64,000 bases of DNA from an uncultured Desulfatibacillum sp. (GCA_964427375.1 CAYRUF010000020.1:563-64562); one strand, 5' to 3'; positions 27,741-37,603 are shown, numbered from the stretch's first letter. A program made the numbers and translations. Notes: a model not told the origin generated them from the sequence alone.

Positions 27741-28598
27741 ATGGACATGCAGCAGCGACTGATCAAAATGGGGTGGAACCTTTTTCTGATTATTGCCGGA
27801 AGCGTGCTATGCGCCGTGGCCATCAACGGCATCCTCATTCCCAACCAGTTCCTGGCCGGGGGGATCAGCGGCCTGAGTCTTTTTATTTATTACCTCTTTC
27901 CGTTCATGCCGGTCGGAGTCAACAATTTCCTTCTCAATATACCGCTTTTCGCGATCGGATGGTTGTTTGTCGGGCGCCGATTCTTCTTCTACAGTCTGGC
28001 CGGGATGGTGATCTTTTCGGCGGCACTGCTCCTGCAGGTGCCGGTGTTTCCGATTCGGGACCCGCTTCTCCAAGCGCTGACCGCCGGCATCATATCCGGC
28101 ATCGGCAGCGGCGTGATCCTGAAATCCCTCGGCTCCGGCGGAGGCCTGGATATTCTCTCGGTCATTTTGCTCAAGCGCTTTTCCATCCGAATCGGCACCA
28201 CGGTCATGGCGTTCAACTGCGCCCTGCTGGCGGCCTCGCTCTTCCGCTTCAGCCTGGACATCGTTCTTTACACCTTGATCTATCTTTTTGTCACGACCCA
28301 GCTCGTCAACCTGGTGGTGACCGGGCTCAACCAGCGCAAGGCGGTCATGGTGGTCTCGCCGGCATGGCAGGCCATCGCGCGCGAGATCATGGAGACCATG
28401 CAGCGCGGGGTCACCATCGTCAACGGCGAGGGCGGTTACACCGGCCATCCGCTGCGCATCATCTATTCGGTGATCACGTTCCAGGAACTGTCCCGTTTCA
28501 AAGAGATGGTCCGCCAGCATGACCCCCTCGCGTTTCTGGTGGTGACCGAAACCCTGGAGGTGATGGGCAGGGGGATCGGCAACCAGCCGCACTGGTAA
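27741..28598 (+). CDS. YitT family membrane protein (DUF161 + DUF2179)
   Basis: FLAGGISG, LNIPLF, GSGGGLDI, RGVT...G.GGYT, DPLAF. Confidence 0.9.
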   Translation: MDMQQRLIKMGWNLFLIIAGSVLCAVAINGILIPNQFLAGGISGLSLFIYYLFPFMPVGVNNFLLNIPLFAIGWLFVGRRFFFYSLAGMVIFSAALLLQVPVFPIRDPLLQALTAGIISGIGSGVILKSLGSGGGLDILSVILLKRFSIRIGTTVMAFNCALLAASLFRFSLDIVLYTLIYLFVTTQLVNLVVTGLNQRKAVMVVSPAWQAIAREIMETMQRGVTIVNGEGGYTGHPLRIIYSVITFQELSRFKEMVRQHDPLAFLVVTETLEVMGRGIGNQPHW

Positions 28599-28696: not shown

Positions 28697-30247
28697 TCAA
28701 AGGGGTTTGGAATAGATCACTTTCGCGTCGCCCCGGGCGTAGAAGTCCTCCAGCCGAGCCTCCGGTCGAAACCCCACCCGTTCGTAAAAGGCCCGGGTGC
28801 TCGCGTACTGAGCGCGCCCGGAGGTGTCGGCGTAGAGGCGGGTGCCGCCGGCCTGGCGGACCCGACGCTCCGCCGCCTGCAGCAGGATCCGGCCGAGCCC
28901 TTTGCCCTGAACCTCCGGGGACACCACGATCCAGTAAAGGTCATAGCTGGATTCCGTCAGCGGAACCGGTCCGTAGCAGGCATATCCCGCGAGCTTTCCA
29001 TCCAGCTCGGCGAAAACGAAGTGGTAGCCGCTTTCCGGCCCCTTGGACAGTCTCTCAAGGACCAGTTCTTCGGCGACCTCGGCTTCCGCCGCGCTGAAAT
29101 AGCCGGTGGCCTCCGCCAGGCGCCGGACCGCGGCCGGATCCCCGGTCGAGACGGCGAAGCGCAAGCTCGGCTGGATCGGGGGCGGCGGGATTGAAGCCGC
29201 GGCGGGGATCTCCGCTTTCCGCCCAGCGCCGGGTGAACGCGCTCGGTGCGTGTCGGCCAGAATGCGCGCGATGGCTTCCGGGTAACTGACGCCGGTTGCT
29301 TCCAGCGCGGCGGCGAAGCCGGCATCGGGCGACAGGCAGGGATTGGCGTTGACCTCCAAGACCCAGGGGCGGCCCTCGGCATCCACGCGGAAGTCCACCC
29401 GGGCATAGCCGTTCAGGCCGAAACCCTGCCAGCACCGCAGGGCCAGCATCCGCAGCCGGACCAGCAGCCCGGCATCCTCGGGCGGGAAATCGAAGCGCCG
29501 CGGGGTATGGTGGTATTCATACGAGTCGCTGTCCCACTTGGCGCGGTATCCCACGATGCGCAGCGCATCCGGCGGGTAGCCCTCGAAAAGGATCTCCGCG
29601 GGACGCAGCACCTCGGGGCCGCGGGGGCCGGCCAACAGCGAGAGATTGAATTCGCGGCCCGCCACGAAGCGTTCGGCAAAGCAGGCGCCGCCCAAGCCCG
29701 GTGCGCGGGCCTGCAAGGCCCCCGTCATCCGGTCGACGCGCTCGCAGCGGAGGAGCGCTTTTTCATCGAGGCCGATGGACGCATGCTCCCACAGGGATTT
29801 TATGATCCAGGGTGCCGAAGGCTCGGCGGCGGCCGCAGCCGCCCGCGACACGGCGGGAAGGTCGGGCGGGAAGGGACCGGTCCAATCCGGGGTCGGCAGG
29901 CCCAGCGTCCGCAGGCGGTCCTTGGCCAGGATTTTGTGGGAGGTCTGCTGGATCGCCTCGGTGCACGAGCCGGTGTAAGGCAGGCCCATGGCGTCCAGCA
30001 GCGCCGGCGCCAAATGGATCAAGCGGCCGGTGCCCCCGAGCGCTTCCACCAGGTTGAAGACCAGGTCCGGCCGCTGGGCTTCCAGGCGATGCTTGAGTCG
30101 GGCGATGTCAAGCGTACAGGGCAGGACCTCCGCCGGATGCCCCAGCGCGGCGAGCGCGGTGCGGACGGCTTCAACCTGGGTCAGCACGTCGCGATCGTCG
30201 GGCGCGCTGGCGTCGACGACCTCATTGTGGAGAATGAGGATGCGCAT
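28697..30247 (-). CDS. Ddl-like ATP-grasp ligase fused to a C-terminal GNAT acetyltransferase
   Basis: PDLVFNLVE, WIIKSLWEHASIG, GYARVDFRVD..VLEVNANP; C-terminal LYWIVVSPEVQGKGLG. Confidence 0.85.
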   Translation of the reverse strand: MRILILHNEVVDASAPDDRDVLTQVEAVRTALAALGHPAEVLPCTLDIARLKHRLEAQRPDLVFNLVEALGGTGRLIHLAPALLDAMGLPYTGSCTEAIQQTSHKILAKDRLRTLGLPTPDWTGPFPPDLPAVSRAAAAAAEPSAPWIIKSLWEHASIGLDEKALLRCERVDRMTGALQARAPGLGGACFAERFVAGREFNLSLLAGPRGPEVLRPAEILFEGYPPDALRIVGYRAKWDSDSYEYHHTPRRFDFPPEDAGLLVRLRMLALRCWQGFGLNGYARVDFRVDAEGRPWVLEVNANPCLSPDAGFAAALEATGVSYPEAIARILADTHRARSPGAGRKAEIPAAASIPPPPIQPSLRFAVSTGDPAAVRRLAEATGYFSAAEAEVAEELVLERLSKGPESGYHFVFAELDGKLAGYACYGPVPLTESSYDLYWIVVSPEVQGKGLGRILLQAAERRVRQAGGTRLYADTSGRAQYASTRAFYERVGFRPEARLEDFYARGDAKVIYSKPL

Positions 30248-31253
30248 GGTCGGAGCCGGCGGCGGGCGAGGGCGGGATGCGTTCGGCGGCCGATTCCACG
30301 ATCCGCGCCACCAGGCTGTCGAAGGTCACCCCGACCAGGGAGCCGATGATGGGAAGGTCGGAGTGTTCGAAGTGCAGGCCGGCCAGAGGGTTGACTTCCA
30401 TAAACTGCGGCCGGCCTTTGGCGTCGCAGCGGACATCGAGGCGGCCGGCGTCGCGGCAGCCGAGCGTGCGCCAGGCGCGCAGCGCAATGTCCTCCACGGC
30501 GGCGATCAAGGGGTCTTCCTGGGGCCGCATGAGCCGGTAGCGCACGAGCTCTTCGGAATGCTCCTTGTTGTGATAGGAGTACACGTCCGGCTCGGCGGCG
30601 GGCAGCAGCAGCACCTCCATAATCCCCAGAACCTGAGCTCTGGGGCCGGTGCCGGTGATTCCGACGGTGAACTCGCGGCCGGGCAGAAACCGTTCGACCA
30701 GAACCGGCTGGCGGTAGGCCTGAAGCAGCCGGGCGCAGGCGTCCGGCAGGTCCTGGCGGCGGCGGACAATCGAGCGGGTCGAAACGCCCTTGCCCGTGCC
30801 CTCGGCCACCGGCTTGATGAAATAGGGCGGCGCAAAGCCGACCGCGGCCGCTTCTTGCGGCGCTGCGACGGTCGCAAAAACGCAGGTCGGGATGCCGGCA
30901 TCGCGGATGACCCGCTTGGTCATGCCCTTGTGCAGCGTCAGGCTCATGACCAGCGGGTCCGAAAAGGTGTAGGCAATACCGTAGGCGTCCAGCAGGGCCG
31001 GCACCTGGGCCTCCCGGCCGATGCCGATCAGACCCTCGGCGATGTTGAAAACCAGGTCCCAGCGATGGCCGGCGGCCAGACGCTCCACCAGCCGCCGGAC
31101 ATGGCCGATGCGGTCGGTTTCGTGGCCCAGCCGCTGCAGCGCGGACTCGATGCCGTGGATGGTTTCATCCCGGTCGAATTCGGCGGTTTCGTCCTCCGAG
31201 TATCCCAGCGCGAGGTACTCGGAGCGCAAGTCGTACGTGAGCCCGATCCGCAT
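30222..31253 (-). CDS. Ddl-like ATP-grasp ligase
   Basis: DLVFNIAEG, YFIKPVAEGTGKG, GREFTVG, DAGRLDVR..MEVNPLAG; lacks the Ddl N-terminal GGxSxEH motif. Confidence 0.85.
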   Translation of the reverse strand: MRIGLTYDLRSEYLALGYSEDETAEFDRDETIHGIESALQRLGHETDRIGHVRRLVERLAAGHRWDLVFNIAEGLIGIGREAQVPALLDAYGIAYTFSDPLVMSLTLHKGMTKRVIRDAGIPTCVFATVAAPQEAAAVGFAPPYFIKPVAEGTGKGVSTRSIVRRRQDLPDACARLLQAYRQPVLVERFLPGREFTVGITGTGPRAQVLGIMEVLLLPAAEPDVYSYHNKEHSEELVRYRLMRPQEDPLIAAVEDIALRAWRTLGCRDAGRLDVRCDAKGRPQFMEVNPLAGLHFEHSDLPIIGSLVGVTFDSLVARIVESAAERIPPSPAAGSDHAHPHSPQ

Positions 31254-31268
31254 GGGGCGGCGATCCTC

Positions 31269-32594
31269 TTATCCCCTTCCGACATCCGGATAGCGATAGA
31301 CCTGATCGCAGTAATTGCGAAGCAGCAGGTCGTCGCCGCTGCGGCCTTCGACATAATTGGGCATGAGCGGGATCTTGCCGCCGCCCCCGGGGGCGTCGAT
31401 GACGTAGGTCGGTACCGCGTACCCGGTGGTGAAGCCGCGCAGGCCCCGGATGATTTCAAGGCCCTTTTCGACCGGCGTGCGGAAATGGCTGGAGCCGGTG
31501 ATCGGGTCGCACTGATAGATGTAATACGGCCGCACGCGCATGCGCATCAGATGATGGCAGAGCGCCTTCATGGTCTCCACCGAATCGTTGATGCCCTTCA
31601 GCAATACCGTCTGGGAGCCCAGCGGAATGCCGGCGTTGGCCAGCCGTTCGCAGGCGCGGTAGGCCTCGGCCGTGCACTCGCCCGGATGCGTGAAATGCAG
31701 GCTCATCCACAGCGGGTGGTAGCGCCGCAGGACCCTCACCAGGTTCGGGGTGATGCGCTGAGGCAGCACGGCCGGGATCTTGGTGCCGATGCGGATGATC
31801 TCCACGTGCGGGATCTCACGCAGCCGTGACAGCAGCCAGTTCAATCGCTCGTCGTTCAACGTCAGCGGGTCGCCGCCGGAGATCAGGACATCGCGGACGG
31901 ACGTGGCCGAACGGATGTAATCGATGGCGCGCTCCAGGCGCGAGCGGCTGGGATAGATGGCGCCGTGGCCGACCACGCGGGAGCGCGTGCAATAGCGGCA
32001 ATACGTGGAGCAGAAGTCCAGCACCAACAGCAGCACGCGGTCCGGGTAGCGGTGGACCAGGCCGTGGACGGGGCTCTGTCCGTCTTCGCCGAGCGGATCA
32101 TCGGCTTCTCCGGGCGTTTGGATGAACTCGGAAACCGTCGGGATCACCGTCCGGCGCAGGGCATCGTTCGGGTCGTCCTTGGAAAGCAGGCTCATGAAAT
32201 AGGGCGTGATACCGACCGGCAGCCTGGATTGGATCTTCTCGACAGCCGTGCGCTCGGCGTCGGACAGCGCCAGCATTCGTTCGAGTTGATCCAGGTGGCG
32301 GACACGATTGCGGATCTGCCACTGCCAGTCCGTCCAGTCCTTGTCGCTAGCGGACGGGAAAAAGGCCCGGCGGAAGGCGGCGGCCCTGGGGCTGGAGATG
32401 GGTCGTGATTTGGGTGCTGGGAAAACAGAAATTTTGCCCCTGAAGCGCGGGGCTACTTCCGGTAGGGGAACGACGTTGGCCAGGCAGCCGGATGAACCGG
32501 GAGGTTCTTCATCACTTTCGCCGGCCGTCTCGCTGGTTGATCCGGATGCTGCGTGGCTGTCAGAATCGTGGGACCGGACCACATCCTGTTTCAT
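31269..32594 (-). CDS. kamA: KamA family radical SAM aminomutase (lysine 2,3-aminomutase-like)
   Basis: HRYPDRVL, CSTYCRYCTR, ISGGDPL, YIYQCD, IDAPGGGGKIP (PLP lysine). Confidence 0.92.
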   Translation of the reverse strand: MKQDVVRSHDSDSHAASGSTSETAGESDEEPPGSSGCLANVVPLPEVAPRFRGKISVFPAPKSRPISSPRAAAFRRAFFPSASDKDWTDWQWQIRNRVRHLDQLERMLALSDAERTAVEKIQSRLPVGITPYFMSLLSKDDPNDALRRTVIPTVSEFIQTPGEADDPLGEDGQSPVHGLVHRYPDRVLLLVLDFCSTYCRYCTRSRVVGHGAIYPSRSRLERAIDYIRSATSVRDVLISGGDPLTLNDERLNWLLSRLREIPHVEIIRIGTKIPAVLPQRITPNLVRVLRRYHPLWMSLHFTHPGECTAEAYRACERLANAGIPLGSQTVLLKGINDSVETMKALCHHLMRMRVRPYYIYQCDPITGSSHFRTPVEKGLEIIRGLRGFTTGYAVPTYVIDAPGGGGKIPLMPNYVEGRSGDDLLLRNYCDQVYRYPDVGRG

Positions 32595-33083
32595 GGCTGT
32601 CAGAGTTCTCCTTTCACCGGGGCCTTTCAAAGGCCCATACAAATAGTTAAATAGCTTGAAGGACGAAAAAGATCAGGGTATACTATCTTTACTGGGTTGT
32701 TGTGGGTTGCCTTCCCTTTGTTTATCGGTTGGGTTTGCTGCCGATTCGGCCCCGATAGGCCAAATTCGTCCCCTCCATATAGTATTTAGATGCAGACCCT
32801 AATACAAAATATCGTTGTTGTCAATAAAATATTTTATGTTGAAAATCTAACTTTTTTCTAATCCTCTTGGAGTATTATACTGTTTTTCAACTAATAATCA
32901 AAGCTCTTTTTTTCAGTCGGGTGATGCATAAATGCGACACGTGAGGCTGCCCTGGGATATGTATCTATATTGATACGTGTATCCGGCCTCATGCATCCAA
33001 TTAGAGGCCATTTTCGTACTATCGGATTACAAAGGGCTATGGATTAGAAAAATCGAACGTCGAATTCATAAGGAGGCAGAAGC

Positions 33084-33377
33084 ATGGCTCGTAAAGTGAA
33101 AAAGGACGCTCCCAGGCGACGACGGATTGAATTTTCGATCGAGATGCCCAAGGCCAGCCAGGTGATCCTGATGGGCGATTTCAACCAGTGGGAACCGAAA
33201 ACTCATCCCATGCGCAAAGATGCGGACGGCGTATGGCGCAAGACCGTCATGATCTACCCGGGGCGGTATGAGTACCGGTTTTGGGTGGACGGCGAATGGT
33301 ACAACGACCCGCACAATCGGCTGCGCTGTCCGAACTGCTTCGGAAGCGAAAACAACGTGATCGAAGTGACCACGTGA
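33084..33377 (+). CDS. stand-alone CBM48 / isoamylase early-set domain protein
   Basis: VILMGDFNQW, GVWR, GRYEYRFWVDGEW..DP, FGSENNV. Confidence 0.88.
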   Translation: MARKVKKDAPRRRRIEFSIEMPKASQVILMGDFNQWEPKTHPMRKDADGVWRKTVMIYPGRYEYRFWVDGEWYNDPHNRLRCPNCFGSENNVIEVTT

Positions 33378-33486: not shown

Positions 33487-35844
33487 TTATTTTTCAAGCG
33501 CCAGCTTGAGGACGTCCATCATTCGATCCACGAAGTGAAACGTGATGTCCTTTTGCACTTTCTTCGGGATGTCTTCCAGGTCCTTGTGATTTTCTTTGGG
33601 CAGGATGACCGTCTTGATTCCGGCGCGGTGGGCGGCCAGCACTTTTTCCTTGATCCCGCCCACCGGCAGCACCTGGCCGCGCAGGGTGATTTCCCCGGTC
33701 ATGGCGAGATCTTTGACCACCGCATGCTTGGTGAGGAAGGAGACCAGGGCGGTGAAGATGGTGACTCCGGCCGAGGGTCCGTCCTTGGGGATGGCGCCGG
33801 CCGGTATGTGGATGTGGATGTCCTGGCTTTCGAAGATGGTTTCGGACAGGCCCAGTTTGACGGCGTGAGTGCGGATGAAGCTCAGCGCCGCCTGGGCCGA
33901 CTCCTTCATGACATCGCCGAGTTGGCCGGTCATGATCAGGCGATCCTTGCCCTTCATGGCGGTGGCTTCGACAAAGAGGATGTCGCCGCCGACCTGGGTC
34001 CAGGCCAGGCCGGTGACCACCCCCGGCGTGGACGTGCGCGACCGGGTTTCCGCGCTGAAGCGCACCGGCCCGAGATATTTGGTGACCTGCTGGGCCTTGA
34101 TGGCCTCGGCGGTGATCGACCCCTCGGCGACTCGGCTGGCCACCCCGCGGCAGATGGAACCGATCTCGCGTTCCAGGTTGCGCAGGCCGGCCTCCCGCGT
34201 GTAGCCGGAGATGATGTGCCGCAGGGCCGCGCGGCTGAAGGTGATCTGCTCGGCCGAAAGCCCGTTGGCCGAGCGCTGGCGGGGGATCAGGTGCCGCTCG
34301 GCGATGTGGATCTTCTCGTCCTCGGTATAGCCCAGCAGCTGCAGCACTTCCATGCGGTCGCGCAGCGCCGGCGGGATCGTGTCGAGGATGTTGGCGGTGG
34401 CGATGAACATGGCTTTGGACAGGTCGAACGGCACGTCGAGATAATGGTCCTGGAAGGAGTGGTTCTGCTCGGGGTCGAGCACCTCCAGCAGGGCCGATGA
34501 GGGGTCGCCGCGGAAATCGGCGCCCAGCTTGTCGATTTCGTCGAGCATAAAAACGGGGTTGTTGGATTCGGCGCGGCGGATGCCCTGGATGACCCGTCCG
34601 GGCAGGGCGCCGACATAGGTGCGGCGGTGGCCGCGGATCTCGGCTTCGTCCCGCACGCCGCCGAGGGACATGCGATAGAACTTGCGGCCGAGGGCGCGGG
34701 CGATGGACTGGCCGAGCGAGGTCTTGCCGGTGCCGGGAGGGCCCGCAAAGCACAGGATCGGCCCCTTGGAGTCGGGCTTGAGCTTGCGCACGGCGAGATA
34801 TTCGATGATGCGGCGCTTGGGCTTTTCAAGGCCGTAATGGTCGTCGTCCAGCACCTTGCGGGCCTTCTTGATATCCAGGTTGTCCTCGGTGGCCTGGTGC
34901 CAGGGCAGGCCGGTCAGCCAATCGAGAAACGTGGTGGCGACCGTGTACTCCGCCGAGGAGGGATGCATGCGCCCGAGCCGTTCGAGCTCGCGCTCCGCCT
35001 CTTTGGCCGCCTCCGGCGGCAGGTTGGCCTCGCTGACCTTGGTGCGATAGGTCTCCACCTCGGCGGTGGCTTCGTCCTTTTCGCCCAGCTCGGCCTTGAT
35101 GGCCTTGAGCTGTTCGCGCAGGTAGTACTCGCGCTGCTTCTTGTCCATGTCCTCCTTGACCTGGTCCTGGATCTTCTTGCCCAGCTCCAGGATTTCCAGC
35201 TGCTTGTTCACGATGCGCGTGACCTCCTTCAGCCGGTCGGCCACGGGTCCGAGCTCAAGCACCTTCTGCTTTTCTTCCGCCGTGGCGTTGATGGAGGAGG
35301 CGATCATATCGGCCAGGGTGCCGGCCTCCTTGATCGACTGCGCCATGTAGACGACTTCGGCGGGAAGGGTCGGCGACGCCTGCACGACGCGCGCAAAGAG
35401 GTTCACAATATTGGTCATCAAGGCTTCGATCTCGGTATTCTGCGAGGCGTCTTCGGCCAAATGCTCGACCTCGGCCTGGAAGAAGGCCTTGCCCTCGGCC
35501 TGCACGAGGTTCTTGATCCGGAAACGCCCCAGGCCCTGGACCAGCAGCTGGGTGCGGTTTTCAGGGGTCTTGGCCATTTTGAGGATCATGGCGCTCGTTC
35601 CTACGGACGCGTAGCTCTCCGGCTTCGGCGGCCCTTCCTGGGAGGGGTCGGGTTTGGCGAAGACCATGCCGATCAGGCGGTCGCGCGACATGGCCTCGTC
35701 GATGAGCTGCACCGAATCCGGCTGCATCACCAGCAGCGGGGTCACCATCTTGGGAAACAGCACCGAGTCGACCACCGGCAGCAGGGGCAGAATATCCGGA
35801 AGCTGGTTCGCAACAGCGGCTTCAGATGATTGTTCGTCGGTCAT
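33487..35844 (-). CDS. lon: Lon protease (copy 2)
   Basis: [27 protein letters not shown]. Confidence 0.95.
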
Positions 35845-35921: not shown

Positions 35922-36365
35922 TCATTCGCTGGTGATGGGCACTTTGTAAGTCTGGTCCATCGGCCGTTTGACCAGCCGGATCTCCAGCAATCCATTCTTG
36001 GCCGCAGCGCTGACCTTGTCCGGATCGATGGGGCTCGGCAGGAAGAGGATGCGCTCGAACCGTCCGTACTGGATTTCGGCCAGGCGATAGGTGCAGCTGG
36101 CGCCAGAGGCCGGCGTCAGGCGTTTGCCCTGGATGCGCACGGCCTTGCTGCTGATCTCGACTTCGAGATCCTCCTTGTCCACGCCGCCGATCTCGGCCCG
36201 GATGACGACTTCATCCGGCGTTTCATACATGTCCATCGGCGGGCGCCAGGCGCGTTCCGAGAGCGTGAAGGACGGGCCGATCCCCAGCATGTCCTCCAGG
36301 GTCTTTTCAAACTTGGAGGACAACTCGTCCAGGTCGTTGCCGAAGCGAATCTTGAAGAATTCCAT
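35922..36365 (-). CDS. Hsp20/alpha-crystallin family protein (copy 2)
   Basis: PPMDMYET, EIGGVDKEDLEVE, EIQYGRFERILFLP, KNGLLEI. Confidence 0.92.
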   Translation of the reverse strand: MEFFKIRFGNDLDELSSKFEKTLEDMLGIGPSFTLSERAWRPPMDMYETPDEVVIRAEIGGVDKEDLEVEISSKAVRIQGKRLTPASGASCTYRLAEIQYGRFERILFLPSPIDPDKVSAAAKNGLLEIRLVKRPMDQTYKVPITSE

Positions 36366-36612: not shown

Positions 36613-37521
36613 TTACAGCTGCTCCGGCGTAAATGCCACCACTTCGTCGATCGCGGCGGCATCGCAGAAGAGCATGGCCAGCCGGTCGATGCCGAGCGCG
36701 TTGCCGGCGCAGGGCGGCAGGTGCTTCAACGCTTCGAGGAATTTCTCCGGAAGCGGGTAGGCCGAGCGGCCCGAGTCGCCGATGCGCTGCTGCTCCGCCT
36801 CGAACCGCTGCCGCTGCTCGGCCGCGTCGTTCAGTTCGCTGAAACCGTTGCAGATCTCCAGTCCGCCGATGTAAAGCTCGAACCGTTCCGCTACGGCCGG
36901 ATTTTCAGGCTTCAGACGCGCCAGCGATGCCTTCTCGGCCGGGTAGTCGATCAGGAAGACCGGGCGCTCCTTGACGAGGTTCGGCTCGATCGCCAGGCCC
37001 ATGACTTCATCGAAGCGGCTCTGGGCCAATGCCTCCTCGGCGGAGACGGCGGCGAAGCGGTGATAGGCCTCGCTCACGGTCAGACGCGGCCAGGGCGCGG
37101 CCAGATCGATGGTCAGCCCCTGATAGCTCAGGCTGCCGCCCATGCCGAGCCGGCGGGCGATGTGCCGGATCAGCTCTTCGCAGCGGGCCATCAGATCGTC
37201 ATACGTCTGGCCAGCGGCATACCACTCCAGCATGGTCATCTCCGGCAGATGCCGTCGCCCGCGCTCGGCCTTGCGGAAGCACTTGCAGATCTGGAAGATT
37301 TTCGTATGGCCGGCCGCGAGGAGGCGCTTCATGCAAAGCTCCGGCGATGGCTGCAGCACCCAGCCGTCCGAGGAGATTACCTCGATATGTGCTTCCGGCA
37401 GCGGCGCGGGGATGCGCAGCGGGGTTTCGACTTCGAGGAAGCCCTGACCGCGGAAGGAGCTGCGGATCAGGTTCAGGATCTCGGCCCGGCGCTCCAGGTT
37501 GGCAGATTTGAAATTCTTCAT
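36613..37521 (-). CDS. epmA: EF-P lysine aminoacylase EpmA (GenX/PoxA)
   Basis: GFLEVETP, LQPSPELCMKRLLA, IFQICKCFR, EMTMLEWY, ERFELYI..EICNGFSEL, GNALGIDRL; no anticodon-binding domain. Confidence 0.92.
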   Translation of the reverse strand: MKNFKSANLERRAEILNLIRSSFRGQGFLEVETPLRIPAPLPEAHIEVISSDGWVLQPSPELCMKRLLAAGHTKIFQICKCFRKAERGRRHLPEMTMLEWYAAGQTYDDLMARCEELIRHIARRLGMGGSLSYQGLTIDLAAPWPRLTVSEAYHRFAAVSAEEALAQSRFDEVMGLAIEPNLVKERPVFLIDYPAEKASLARLKPENPAVAERFELYIGGLEICNGFSELNDAAEQRQRFEAEQQRIGDSGRSAYPLPEKFLEALKHLPPCAGNALGIDRLAMLFCDAAAIDEVVAFTPEQL

Positions 37522-37603
37522 GTAACATGCCTCATCGCAAACCGGCAGAACCACCCACTTTCGCCAGGCAATCACGCATTGAAACGGCAGCTTCCAATCG
37601 GTT

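Follow-up and report, generated by a model that had tools for sequence, protein, structure and literature searches.

In a 64,000-nucleotide stretch of DNA from an uncultured Desulfatibacillum sp. (GCA_964427375.1, CAYRUF010000020.1:563-64562; this whole stretch is referred to as the window), three consecutive open reading frames (ORFs) on the minus strand, called between positions 28697 and 32642, encode a homolog of lysine 2,3-aminomutase (KamA), an ATP-grasp amide ligase (ligase 1, or Lig1) and a second such ligase fused to a GNAT acetyltransferase (ligase 2::GNAT, or Lig2::GNAT). The reading of this cassette that we favor, and that we hold to be somewhat probable, is that it makes a small amide or oligoamide containing beta-lysine, by means of an enzyme complex and with reversible N-acetylation. 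The product would be small and probably cationic, with an amine masked by acetylation in this organism, and could serve as a compatible solute or as a polyamine-like cation.

The kamA gene (31269..32594) encodes a radical-SAM, pyridoxal phosphate (PLP)-dependent lysine 2,3-aminomutase of 441 aa, with the Pfam domains Radical_SAM and LAM_C. Its frame is open up to a TTG codon at 32642 and ends in a TAA stop at 31269-31271. The ATG at 32594 is most plausibly the start codon, as it is preceded by GAAAGGAGA and gives a protein of 441 aa, the length called in most homologs. A gap of 15 bp, which includes GAGGA, separates kamA from the gene for ligase 1 (30222..31253, with its ATG at 31253), a Ddl-like ATP-grasp amide ligase of 343 aa with the Pfam domain Dala_Dala_lig_C. 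The ATG of the fusion gene (30247) overlaps the end of ligase 1, whose TGA lies at 30222-30224, by 26 bp. This third gene (28697-30247) combines Dala_Dala_lig_C with Acetyltransf_1, namely, the ligase 2 ATP-grasp domain (aa 1-336, 29240..30247) and the GNAT domain (aa ~357-516, 28697..29179). These coordinates confirm the tight three-gene operon, with its gap and its overlap, that had been described in an original prediction made from the same DNA.

Several features of the catalytic domain bear on the substrate of KamA. First, KamA aligns with the lysine 2,3-aminomutase (LAM) of Clostridium subterminale (2A5H) at 470 bits over 360 residues, and it keeps C125, C129 and C132 of the CxxxCxxC cluster, the carboxylate-binding R134 and the PLP lysine K337. 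Second, its YQCD and VIDAP motifs, which the original prediction had singled out for their acidic residues, do align with D293 and D330 of 2A5H, the residues that bind the epsilon-ammonium group, and are invariant in 19 homologs; in glutamate 2,3-aminomutase both of these Asp residues are replaced. Third, KamA scores 490.2 bits against the NCBIfam AblA model TIGR03820 (cut-off 525.4), 435 bits against the glutamate-2,3-aminomutase model (cut-off 650), 394 bits against the arginine-2,3-aminomutase model (cut-off 600) and 248.7 bits against the EpmB model (cut-off 369.3), and it passes the subfamily model TIGR00238 with 354 bits (cut-off 199). The shortfall against AblA fits the absence from KamA of the C-terminal ~60 model positions; compared with LAM, the enzyme is without the final ~50 residues and has Ser in place of the Zn ligand C268. 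Since the lysine-binding residues are kept and the AblA model ranks highest, the substrate is likely to be free L-lysine and the product beta-lysine. Beta-arginine, which had been proposed beside beta-lysine as a possible building block, is an unlikely product, because KamA scores far nearer the lysine model than the arginine model. No second KamA-family gene was found in the window.

The two ligases were compared with Escherichia coli DdlB in an alignment that included 68 members of the ligase 1 family and 81 of the ligase 2 family, the canonical residues of DdlB being confirmed at their published numbers; this alignment is uncertain in the N-terminal part. All members of both families (68/68 and 81/81, respectively) keep the equivalents of K97, K144, E180, E187, K215, R255, D257, E270 and N272. 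Given this complete set of ATP-binding, Mg-binding and catalytic residues, both proteins should be active amide ligases that form acyl phosphates, with a mechanism like that of the Ddl/VanA family. The nearest solved fold is that of Ddl, the structure search having returned only Ddl and the GNAT protein 2R7H, a result uninformative as to substrates, and the AlphaFold model of ligase 2 matches Ddl structures with a target-normalized TM-score (template modeling score) of about 0.8. In contrast, the alignment confirmed that the N-terminal GGxSxE motif of Ddl (GGxSxEH in the original prediction) is absent from both ligases, and the residues of the E15/S150/Y216 triad and of the S281-L282 nucleophile site are replaced. 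At E15, S150, Y216 and S281-L282, ligase 1 has A, T, E and S-D, with Glu at the Y216 position in 53 of the 68 family members and Ser-Asp in all 68, whereas ligase 2 has D, A, W and A-G, with Trp at the Y216 position in 81/81. These additional acidic residues at Ddl substrate positions suggest that the substrates are cationic. Ligases 1 and 2 share 32% identity.

It is extremely improbable, in our view, that these are housekeeping genes grouped by chance, such as peptidoglycan D-Ala-D-Ala ligases next to a KamA for lysine fermentation. Automatic names and Pfam do label both proteins as D-alanine-D-alanine ligases. However, all curated Ddl and Van models score far below their cut-offs, the best curated Ddl scores being 151 bits for ligase 1 and 92 bits for ligase 2 when the least demanding cut-off is 243, and the E15, Y216 and S281/L282 positions are changed in both. 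On these substrate residues and model scores we rejected the identification of either ligase as a Ddl; both are currently misnamed. Moreover, the gene order of the cassette is kept across phyla, and none of the lysine-fermentation genes kamDE, kdd, kce and kal is recurrent in its neighborhood.

The cassette is widespread. A scan of one genome per species, with the Lig2::GNAT fusion protein as query, found relatives in at least 587 species-representative genomes, the best 80 of which fall in Desulfobacterales, Syntrophia, Planctomycetota (including Brocadiaceae), Kiritimatiellia/Lentisphaerae, Bacteroidota, Gamma- and Alphaproteobacteria, and Clostridia. Upstream sequence of at least 3.5 kb is available for 59 related loci; in 50 of these, KamA, Lig1 and Lig2 occur together and in this order (45 with and five without a GNAT). 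The 50 loci span seven or more major lineages of bacteria, namely, Desulfobacterales, Syntrophia, Planctomycetota, Bacteroidota, Gamma- and Alphaproteobacteria, and Clostridia. Co-occurrence across genomes, on which the original prediction had staked its pathway, is thus borne out. The flanking genes are unrelated between lineages, and the divergences of the KamA, Lig1 and Lig2 proteins are correlated (r = 0.76-0.89). Taken together, the conserved order, the unrelated flanks and the correlated divergence indicate that the cassette is an autonomous, co-inherited unit. In two of the related loci (L048, 4554-6956, and L058, 4062-6550), KamA and ligase 1 appear to be broken up over several frames or show only weak similarity, which suggests cassettes in decay or errors of assembly.

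Gene fusions follow the order of the genes. An exhaustive search with ligase 1 returned 714 cluster representatives at E <= 1e-30, and about a quarter of the best 150 matches are proteins of 560-790 aa with two matched stretches; six of these were scanned, and all six have two ATP-grasp domains. Fusions of Lig1 and Lig2 are many and occur in both domain orders, as in P0241, the second half of which is 47% identical to ligase 2 of the window, and P0259 joins KamA to Lig1. Such fusions, together with that of Lig2 and the GNAT in the window, argue for a physical complex and for a sequence of steps from KamA through Lig1 and Lig2 to the GNAT, and they lend support to the earlier idea that the two ligases work together, possibly as a heterodimer. 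A further fusion, P0250, joins Lig1 to a CxxCxxCC protein (PF03692, YkgJ-type), and a protein of this family, of ~173 aa, is encoded between kamA and ligase 1 in 14 loci (for instance L074, 5454-5975, and L072, 5448-5969). It is absent from the window, and could assist the radical-SAM enzyme as a redox or metal partner. One ligase 1 homolog with 46% identity, P0300 (980 aa), carries a long N-terminal leucine-rich-repeat region, an architecture that we saw nowhere else in the family.

Acetylation is the variable part of the system. In the window, a disordered linker (aa 337-356, with predicted local distance difference test values, or pLDDT, below 50) joins ligase 2 to a GNAT domain of ~160 residues, in which QGKGLG, of the acetyl-CoA-binding Q-x-x-G-x-G motif type, is invariant. 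This domain is 52% identical to 2R7H (Dde_3044), an uncharacterized GNAT from Desulfovibrio, with a target-normalized TM-score of 0.97. Among the NCBIfam models, RimI fits it best, with 49.5 bits, which is below the cut-off of 86.4, and AblB models gave no match to it at E <= 0.001. The same type of fusion is found in L003, while the GNAT is absent from the locus in the closest relatives L030, L039, L048, L050 and L056. Many Desulfobacterales have ligase 2 as a protein of its own, of 330-340 aa, followed by a 750-aa protein that consists of a weak GNAT, a deacetylase and a C-terminal GNAT (as in L047 and L051), the last of these being the same GNAT as that fused to ligase 2 in the window; the cultured Desulfosarcina cetonica carries this deacetylase-bearing variant. 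The fused GNAT, the GNAT-deacetylase-GNAT protein and the lack of any GNAT are all represented among the nearest relatives of the window, those with the same EpmA...YitT synteny. In Bacteroidales, a GNAT-deacetylase gene is placed between kamA and ligase 1. The nearest solved relatives of the deacetylase domain are acetylpolyamine amidohydrolases (E = 2e-73). No deacetylase was found in the window, and a 583-aa protein downstream in L005 proved unrelated to the deacetylase protein.

Because the GNAT is missing in the closest relatives and is paired with an acetylpolyamine-type deacetylase in others, the core of the system would be KamA plus the two ligases, with acetylation as a labile and apparently reversible accessory. 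Acetylation as a fixed step, as first put forward, does not agree with this pattern. The combination recalls polyamine acetylation and deacetylation by SpeG-type GNATs and acetylpolyamine amidohydrolase, since sister cassettes fuse GNATs to a deacetylase of that kind; however, in those cassettes the pair is embedded in a beta-lysine and ATP-grasp operon, and the window has the GNAT only.

Among known systems, AblA and AblB, an aminomutase and a GNAT, make N-epsilon-acetyl-beta-lysine in methanogens, and the corresponding genes in Bacillus subtilis are yodP-kamA. The cassette resembles this pair in having an AblA-type mutase first and a GNAT in the same operon. It differs in that two ATP-grasp ligases stand between mutase and GNAT, the GNAT is RimI/2R7H-like and dispensable in close relatives, and KamA has an N-terminal tail but no LAM C-terminus. 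Membership in the AblAB pathway was thus ruled out, as there is no AblB-type GNAT and the ligases intervene. A second parallel is Ngg, a bifunctional protein (GNAT plus ATP-grasp) responsible for the osmolyte N-acetylglutaminylglutamine amide (NAGGN); it likewise has acetyltransferase and ATP-grasp peptide ligase in one polypeptide. However, Ngg has the opposite domain order and belongs to another ATP-grasp subfamily; no homology was detected, and the cassette lacks an AsnO-like amidotransferase and has a built-in supply of beta-lysine. By analogy, the cassette would work like a merger of the AblA/AblB route with ATP-grasp ligases such as Ddl or Ngg.

These parallels raise the possibility of an osmolyte, that is, a neutral acetylated beta-lysine peptide comparable to N-epsilon-acetyl-beta-lysine or NAGGN and used under osmotic or ammonia stress, which would be a special case of the reading that we favor. 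The AblA-like KamA, the attached GNAT and the known products of AblA/AblB and Ngg agree with it, as does one Desulfobacterium genome in which kdpDCBA abuts the cassette. Nevertheless, without the GNAT, as in the closest relatives, the product would remain cationic; other variants add a deacetylase, and the GNAT is not AblB-like. Furthermore, many of the carriers stem from habitats that are not saline, and they include metagenome-assembled genomes from peat, groundwater, digesters and freshwater; neither a transporter nor an osmoregulator is recurrent in the neighborhood. We regard the osmolyte, the main idea of the original prediction, as rather unlikely.

For the broader reading, a beta-lysine amide with adjustable acetylation, we propose the following steps. 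KamA would isomerize free L-lysine to beta-lysine, a step strongly supported by sequence. Ligase 1 and then ligase 2 would each convert a carboxylate into an acyl phosphate and join this to an amine, and the product of two ligations would be a small di- or tri-amide containing beta-lysine. The conserved catalytic residues show this class of chemistry, whereas the substrates are inferred. The partners are probably common or cationic metabolites, in the simplest case more beta-lysine or lysine units, since no other gene for precursor supply accompanies the cassette and acidic residues occupy the Ddl substrate sites. The GNAT fused to ligase 2 would then acetylate a free amine of the product, and in sister versions the acetylpolyamine-amidohydrolase-type deacetylase could take the acetyl group off again. 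Acetylation would serve as an adjustable masking of charge, as in polyamine homeostasis or N-epsilon-acetyl-beta-lysine, and would not be the point of the pathway. The enzymes would probably form one complex, in the order KamA, Lig1, Lig2, GNAT.

Several observations weigh against this scheme. First, the proposed ligase substrates are read only from residue changes, in an alignment with an uncertain N-terminal part. Second, three Pirellulaceae loci (L031, L035 and L036) have Lig1 and Lig2::GNAT, and three Kiritimatiellia/Lentisphaerae loci (L025, L026 and L033) have Lig2::GNAT alone, with no KamA within 4-6 kb in either case, so that beta-lysine supply is not always encoded in cis. Third, the nearest named model of the GNAT, RimI, is a protein N-alpha-acetyltransferase. 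Fourth, KamA carries an acidic tail with an E-P-P motif that would be superfluous in a simple soluble pathway, and a protein-linked step could account for it.

This tail, an N-terminal extension of 65-100 aa, is peculiar to the KamAs of the cassette and absent from LAM and AblA, whose alignments begin at about aa 76-83 of the 441-aa KamA. In the window it covers aa 1-63 (32406..32594, minus strand), a segment predicted as disordered by AlphaFold2 (pLDDT < 35). We found it in 58 full-length cassette KamAs. Its sequence varies outside an acidic run that leads into E-P-P-[G/S/D]; [DE]PP occurs in 55/58 tails, about 55-60 aa before WxxWxWQ, that is, at a near-constant distance from the catalytic domain. 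The motif of the window, ESDEEPPG, lies at 32496..32519 (minus strand) around a nucleotide core of GAA-CCT-CCC-GGT, as its translation confirmed. The open frame in all 58 genes, together with the conserved ribosome-binding site (RBS), shows that the tail is translated. Database calls for the close homologs P0170, P0175, P0183 and P0188 give only 335-341 aa; these begin within the region homologous to LAM residues 6-40, with loss of conserved sequence and of the whole tail, and they look like start-codon misannotations that leave the mutase too short.

The motif is also constrained in its codons. Its nucleotide consensus is GAR-CCU-CCN-RGU, and the first of its two prolines is encoded by CCT in 49 of 57 genes and by CCG or CCA in none, although CCT makes up only 15% of the proline codons of these genes; the adjacent synonymous positions are random. 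This preference, with neighboring synonymous sites randomized, indicates that the motif is under selection at the RNA or DNA level too, which yields CCUCC, the core of an anti-Shine-Dalgarno sequence. The predicted partners of CCUCC differ: some loci offer the kamA RBS and Syntrophia local GAGGAGG codons, and those in the window are weak. As partners vary by lineage, we do not claim a single RNA structure around it. A motif constrained both in protein and in synonymous codons is a testable puzzle on how the pathway is organized or regulated; docking motif, acceptor tail and translational device are all possible roles. It is tempting to speculate that the acidic E-P-P segment is a docking or acceptor site for the ATP-grasp ligases, while CCUCC and the Pro-Pro codons form a translational switch that responds to ribosome stalling or to the status of elongation factor P (EF-P), but we judge this unlikely. 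If the tail were such a device, the output of the pathway would be protein-linked or coupled to translation, rather than a free metabolite. We know of no carrier-tail logic in Ddl-type ligases.

Bearing on the same tail is the idea that the ligases attach beta-lysine or other amino acids to protein carboxylates, such as those of the KamA tail itself, after the manner of LysX/LysW, RimK or tubulin glutamylases, with GNAT and deacetylase acting on the tethered group. We consider this distinctly doubtful. The tail is near-invariant in its motif, disordered and acidic, RimI is the nearest model of the GNAT, and the distribution of the motif could be taken in the same sense: the ligase 1 homolog P0260 has EEDAEPPSP on an N-terminal extension of its own, and the KamA-Lig1 fusion P0259 is without the E-P-P tail, albeit with a single example of each. 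In KamA-less loci no E-P-P motif was found. As in LysX/LysW, the cassette has a conserved acidic peptide segment that might be an ATP-grasp target, although the segment lies in the N-terminal tail of KamA and not at the C-terminus of a carrier, and no LysW-like gene is present. The layout of two ATP-grasp ligases plus a GNAT is also that of microviridin biosynthesis (MdnB, MdnC and MdnD). Against all this, both ligases come closest to Ddl, which acts on small molecules, rather than to RimK or the graspetide enzymes; the deacetylase is acetylpolyamine-like; KamA keeps the residues for a free epsilon-amine and a free carboxylate; and no conserved small precursor ORF is found in the loci. A graspetide cluster, in the sense of a peptide that is made by ribosomes and modified after translation, was ruled out on the same grounds, as the ligases are Ddl-type rather than RimK-type and ORF clustering across 86 loci gave no recurrent small ORF as a precursor-peptide candidate.

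A link to EF-P was weighed as well, in which the cassette would supply or extend the beta-lysyl modification and the Pro-Pro codons of the tail would let KamA expression sense EF-P activity. There is a likeness to EpmA/EpmB in that a KamA-family mutase makes beta-lysine for ligation to an amine; in this lineage a true EpmA lies 4 kb upstream, the cassette kamA is the only KamA-family gene of the window, and E-P-P coincides with the synonymously constrained CCUCC, for which pairing with the kamA RBS is predicted in some loci. However, EpmA is nearby in only 5/85 loci, all of one lineage; KamA is AblA-like and falls well short of the EpmB cut-off (249 against 369 bits); ligation is by ATP-grasp enzymes and not by a paralog of class II aminoacyl-tRNA synthetases; no efp was found in the window or in related loci; the predicted pairing partners vary between loci, those in the window being weak; and a stall within kamA would give positive, not homeostatic, feedback. 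The link is thus very unlikely, and the identification of KamA as EpmB was rejected on its score, on the linkage to epmA in one lineage only and on the lack of a nearby efp.

The EpmA gene itself (36613-37575, minus strand) scores 321.7 bits against TIGR00462, whose cut-off is 286.9. Between it and kamA lie genes for Hsp20 (35922-36365), Lon (33487-35844) and a small CBM48 protein (33084-33377, plus strand), an arrangement that is syntenic in L003, L030, L039 and L048. As EpmA is nearby and neither an EpmB-type gene nor efp was found in the window, this lineage may draw the beta-lysine for EF-P from the cassette KamA.

If the favored reading is correct, that is, a beta-lysine amide made by a complex of KamA and two ligases, the cassette would add a fate for beta-lysine in at least several hundred species. 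To our knowledge, the established bacterial and archaeal fates are few, namely, osmolyte, EF-P modification, lysine fermentation and some antibiotics. The carriers are mostly anaerobes, and include abundant sediment sulfate reducers, syntrophs, planctomycetes (with an anammox family) and Bacteroidales. The identity of the product, which could prove to be a new compatible solute or polyamine analog of anaerobes, would give a function to a large pair of ATP-grasp families, and the cassette is compact, expressible and present in cultured organisms such as D. cetonica. Full-text searches of the literature gave no description of it, although an earlier mention in the 2009 survey of amidoligases (Iyer et al.) is possible; the Pelobacter genome paper mentions only ablA/ablB.

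Upstream of kamA, a promoter region is predicted at 32798..32901 (minus strand), within a 490-bp AT-rich divergent intergenic region. It comprises TTGATT-16-TATAAT (32901-32874; consensus scan 10/12) and a second block, TTGACA-N14-TGTATTAG (about 32824-32799), the spacing of which is unlike that of a standard sigma-70 promoter and which could be an operator. Both blocks (the first as TTTG...TATAAT) and the RBS GAAAGGAGA are kept in six syntenic relatives, while the ~200-nt leader is otherwise not. This lack of conservation makes a riboswitch unlikely, and an Rfam scan of the window gave no known RNA family.

In the clustering of ORFs from the 86 loci, no transporter or regulator recurred near the cassette; the recurrent items were the CxxCxxCC protein, the GNAT-deacetylase module and synteny at the level of lineages. 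A YitT/DUF2179 membrane protein (27741-28598, plus strand) converges on the end of the cassette, and it keeps this position in all close relatives (10 loci), regardless of the state of the GNAT module. The kdp genes mentioned above (L001, 9558-17523, uncultured Desulfobacterium) are arranged as kdpD-kdpC-kdpB-kdpA with a sensor kinase, directly after the cassette and on the opposite strand, and are the sole neighborhood related to osmotic stress that we saw. Finally, in 7-8 loci of the Smithella/Syntrophus type, the cassette is followed by genes for a PhoU_div (DUF47) protein and a PHO4/PitA-type phosphate transporter (L041, 8343-9344, and L022, 4982-5602); these phosphate genes beside the Syntrophia cassettes probably reflect lineage synteny.

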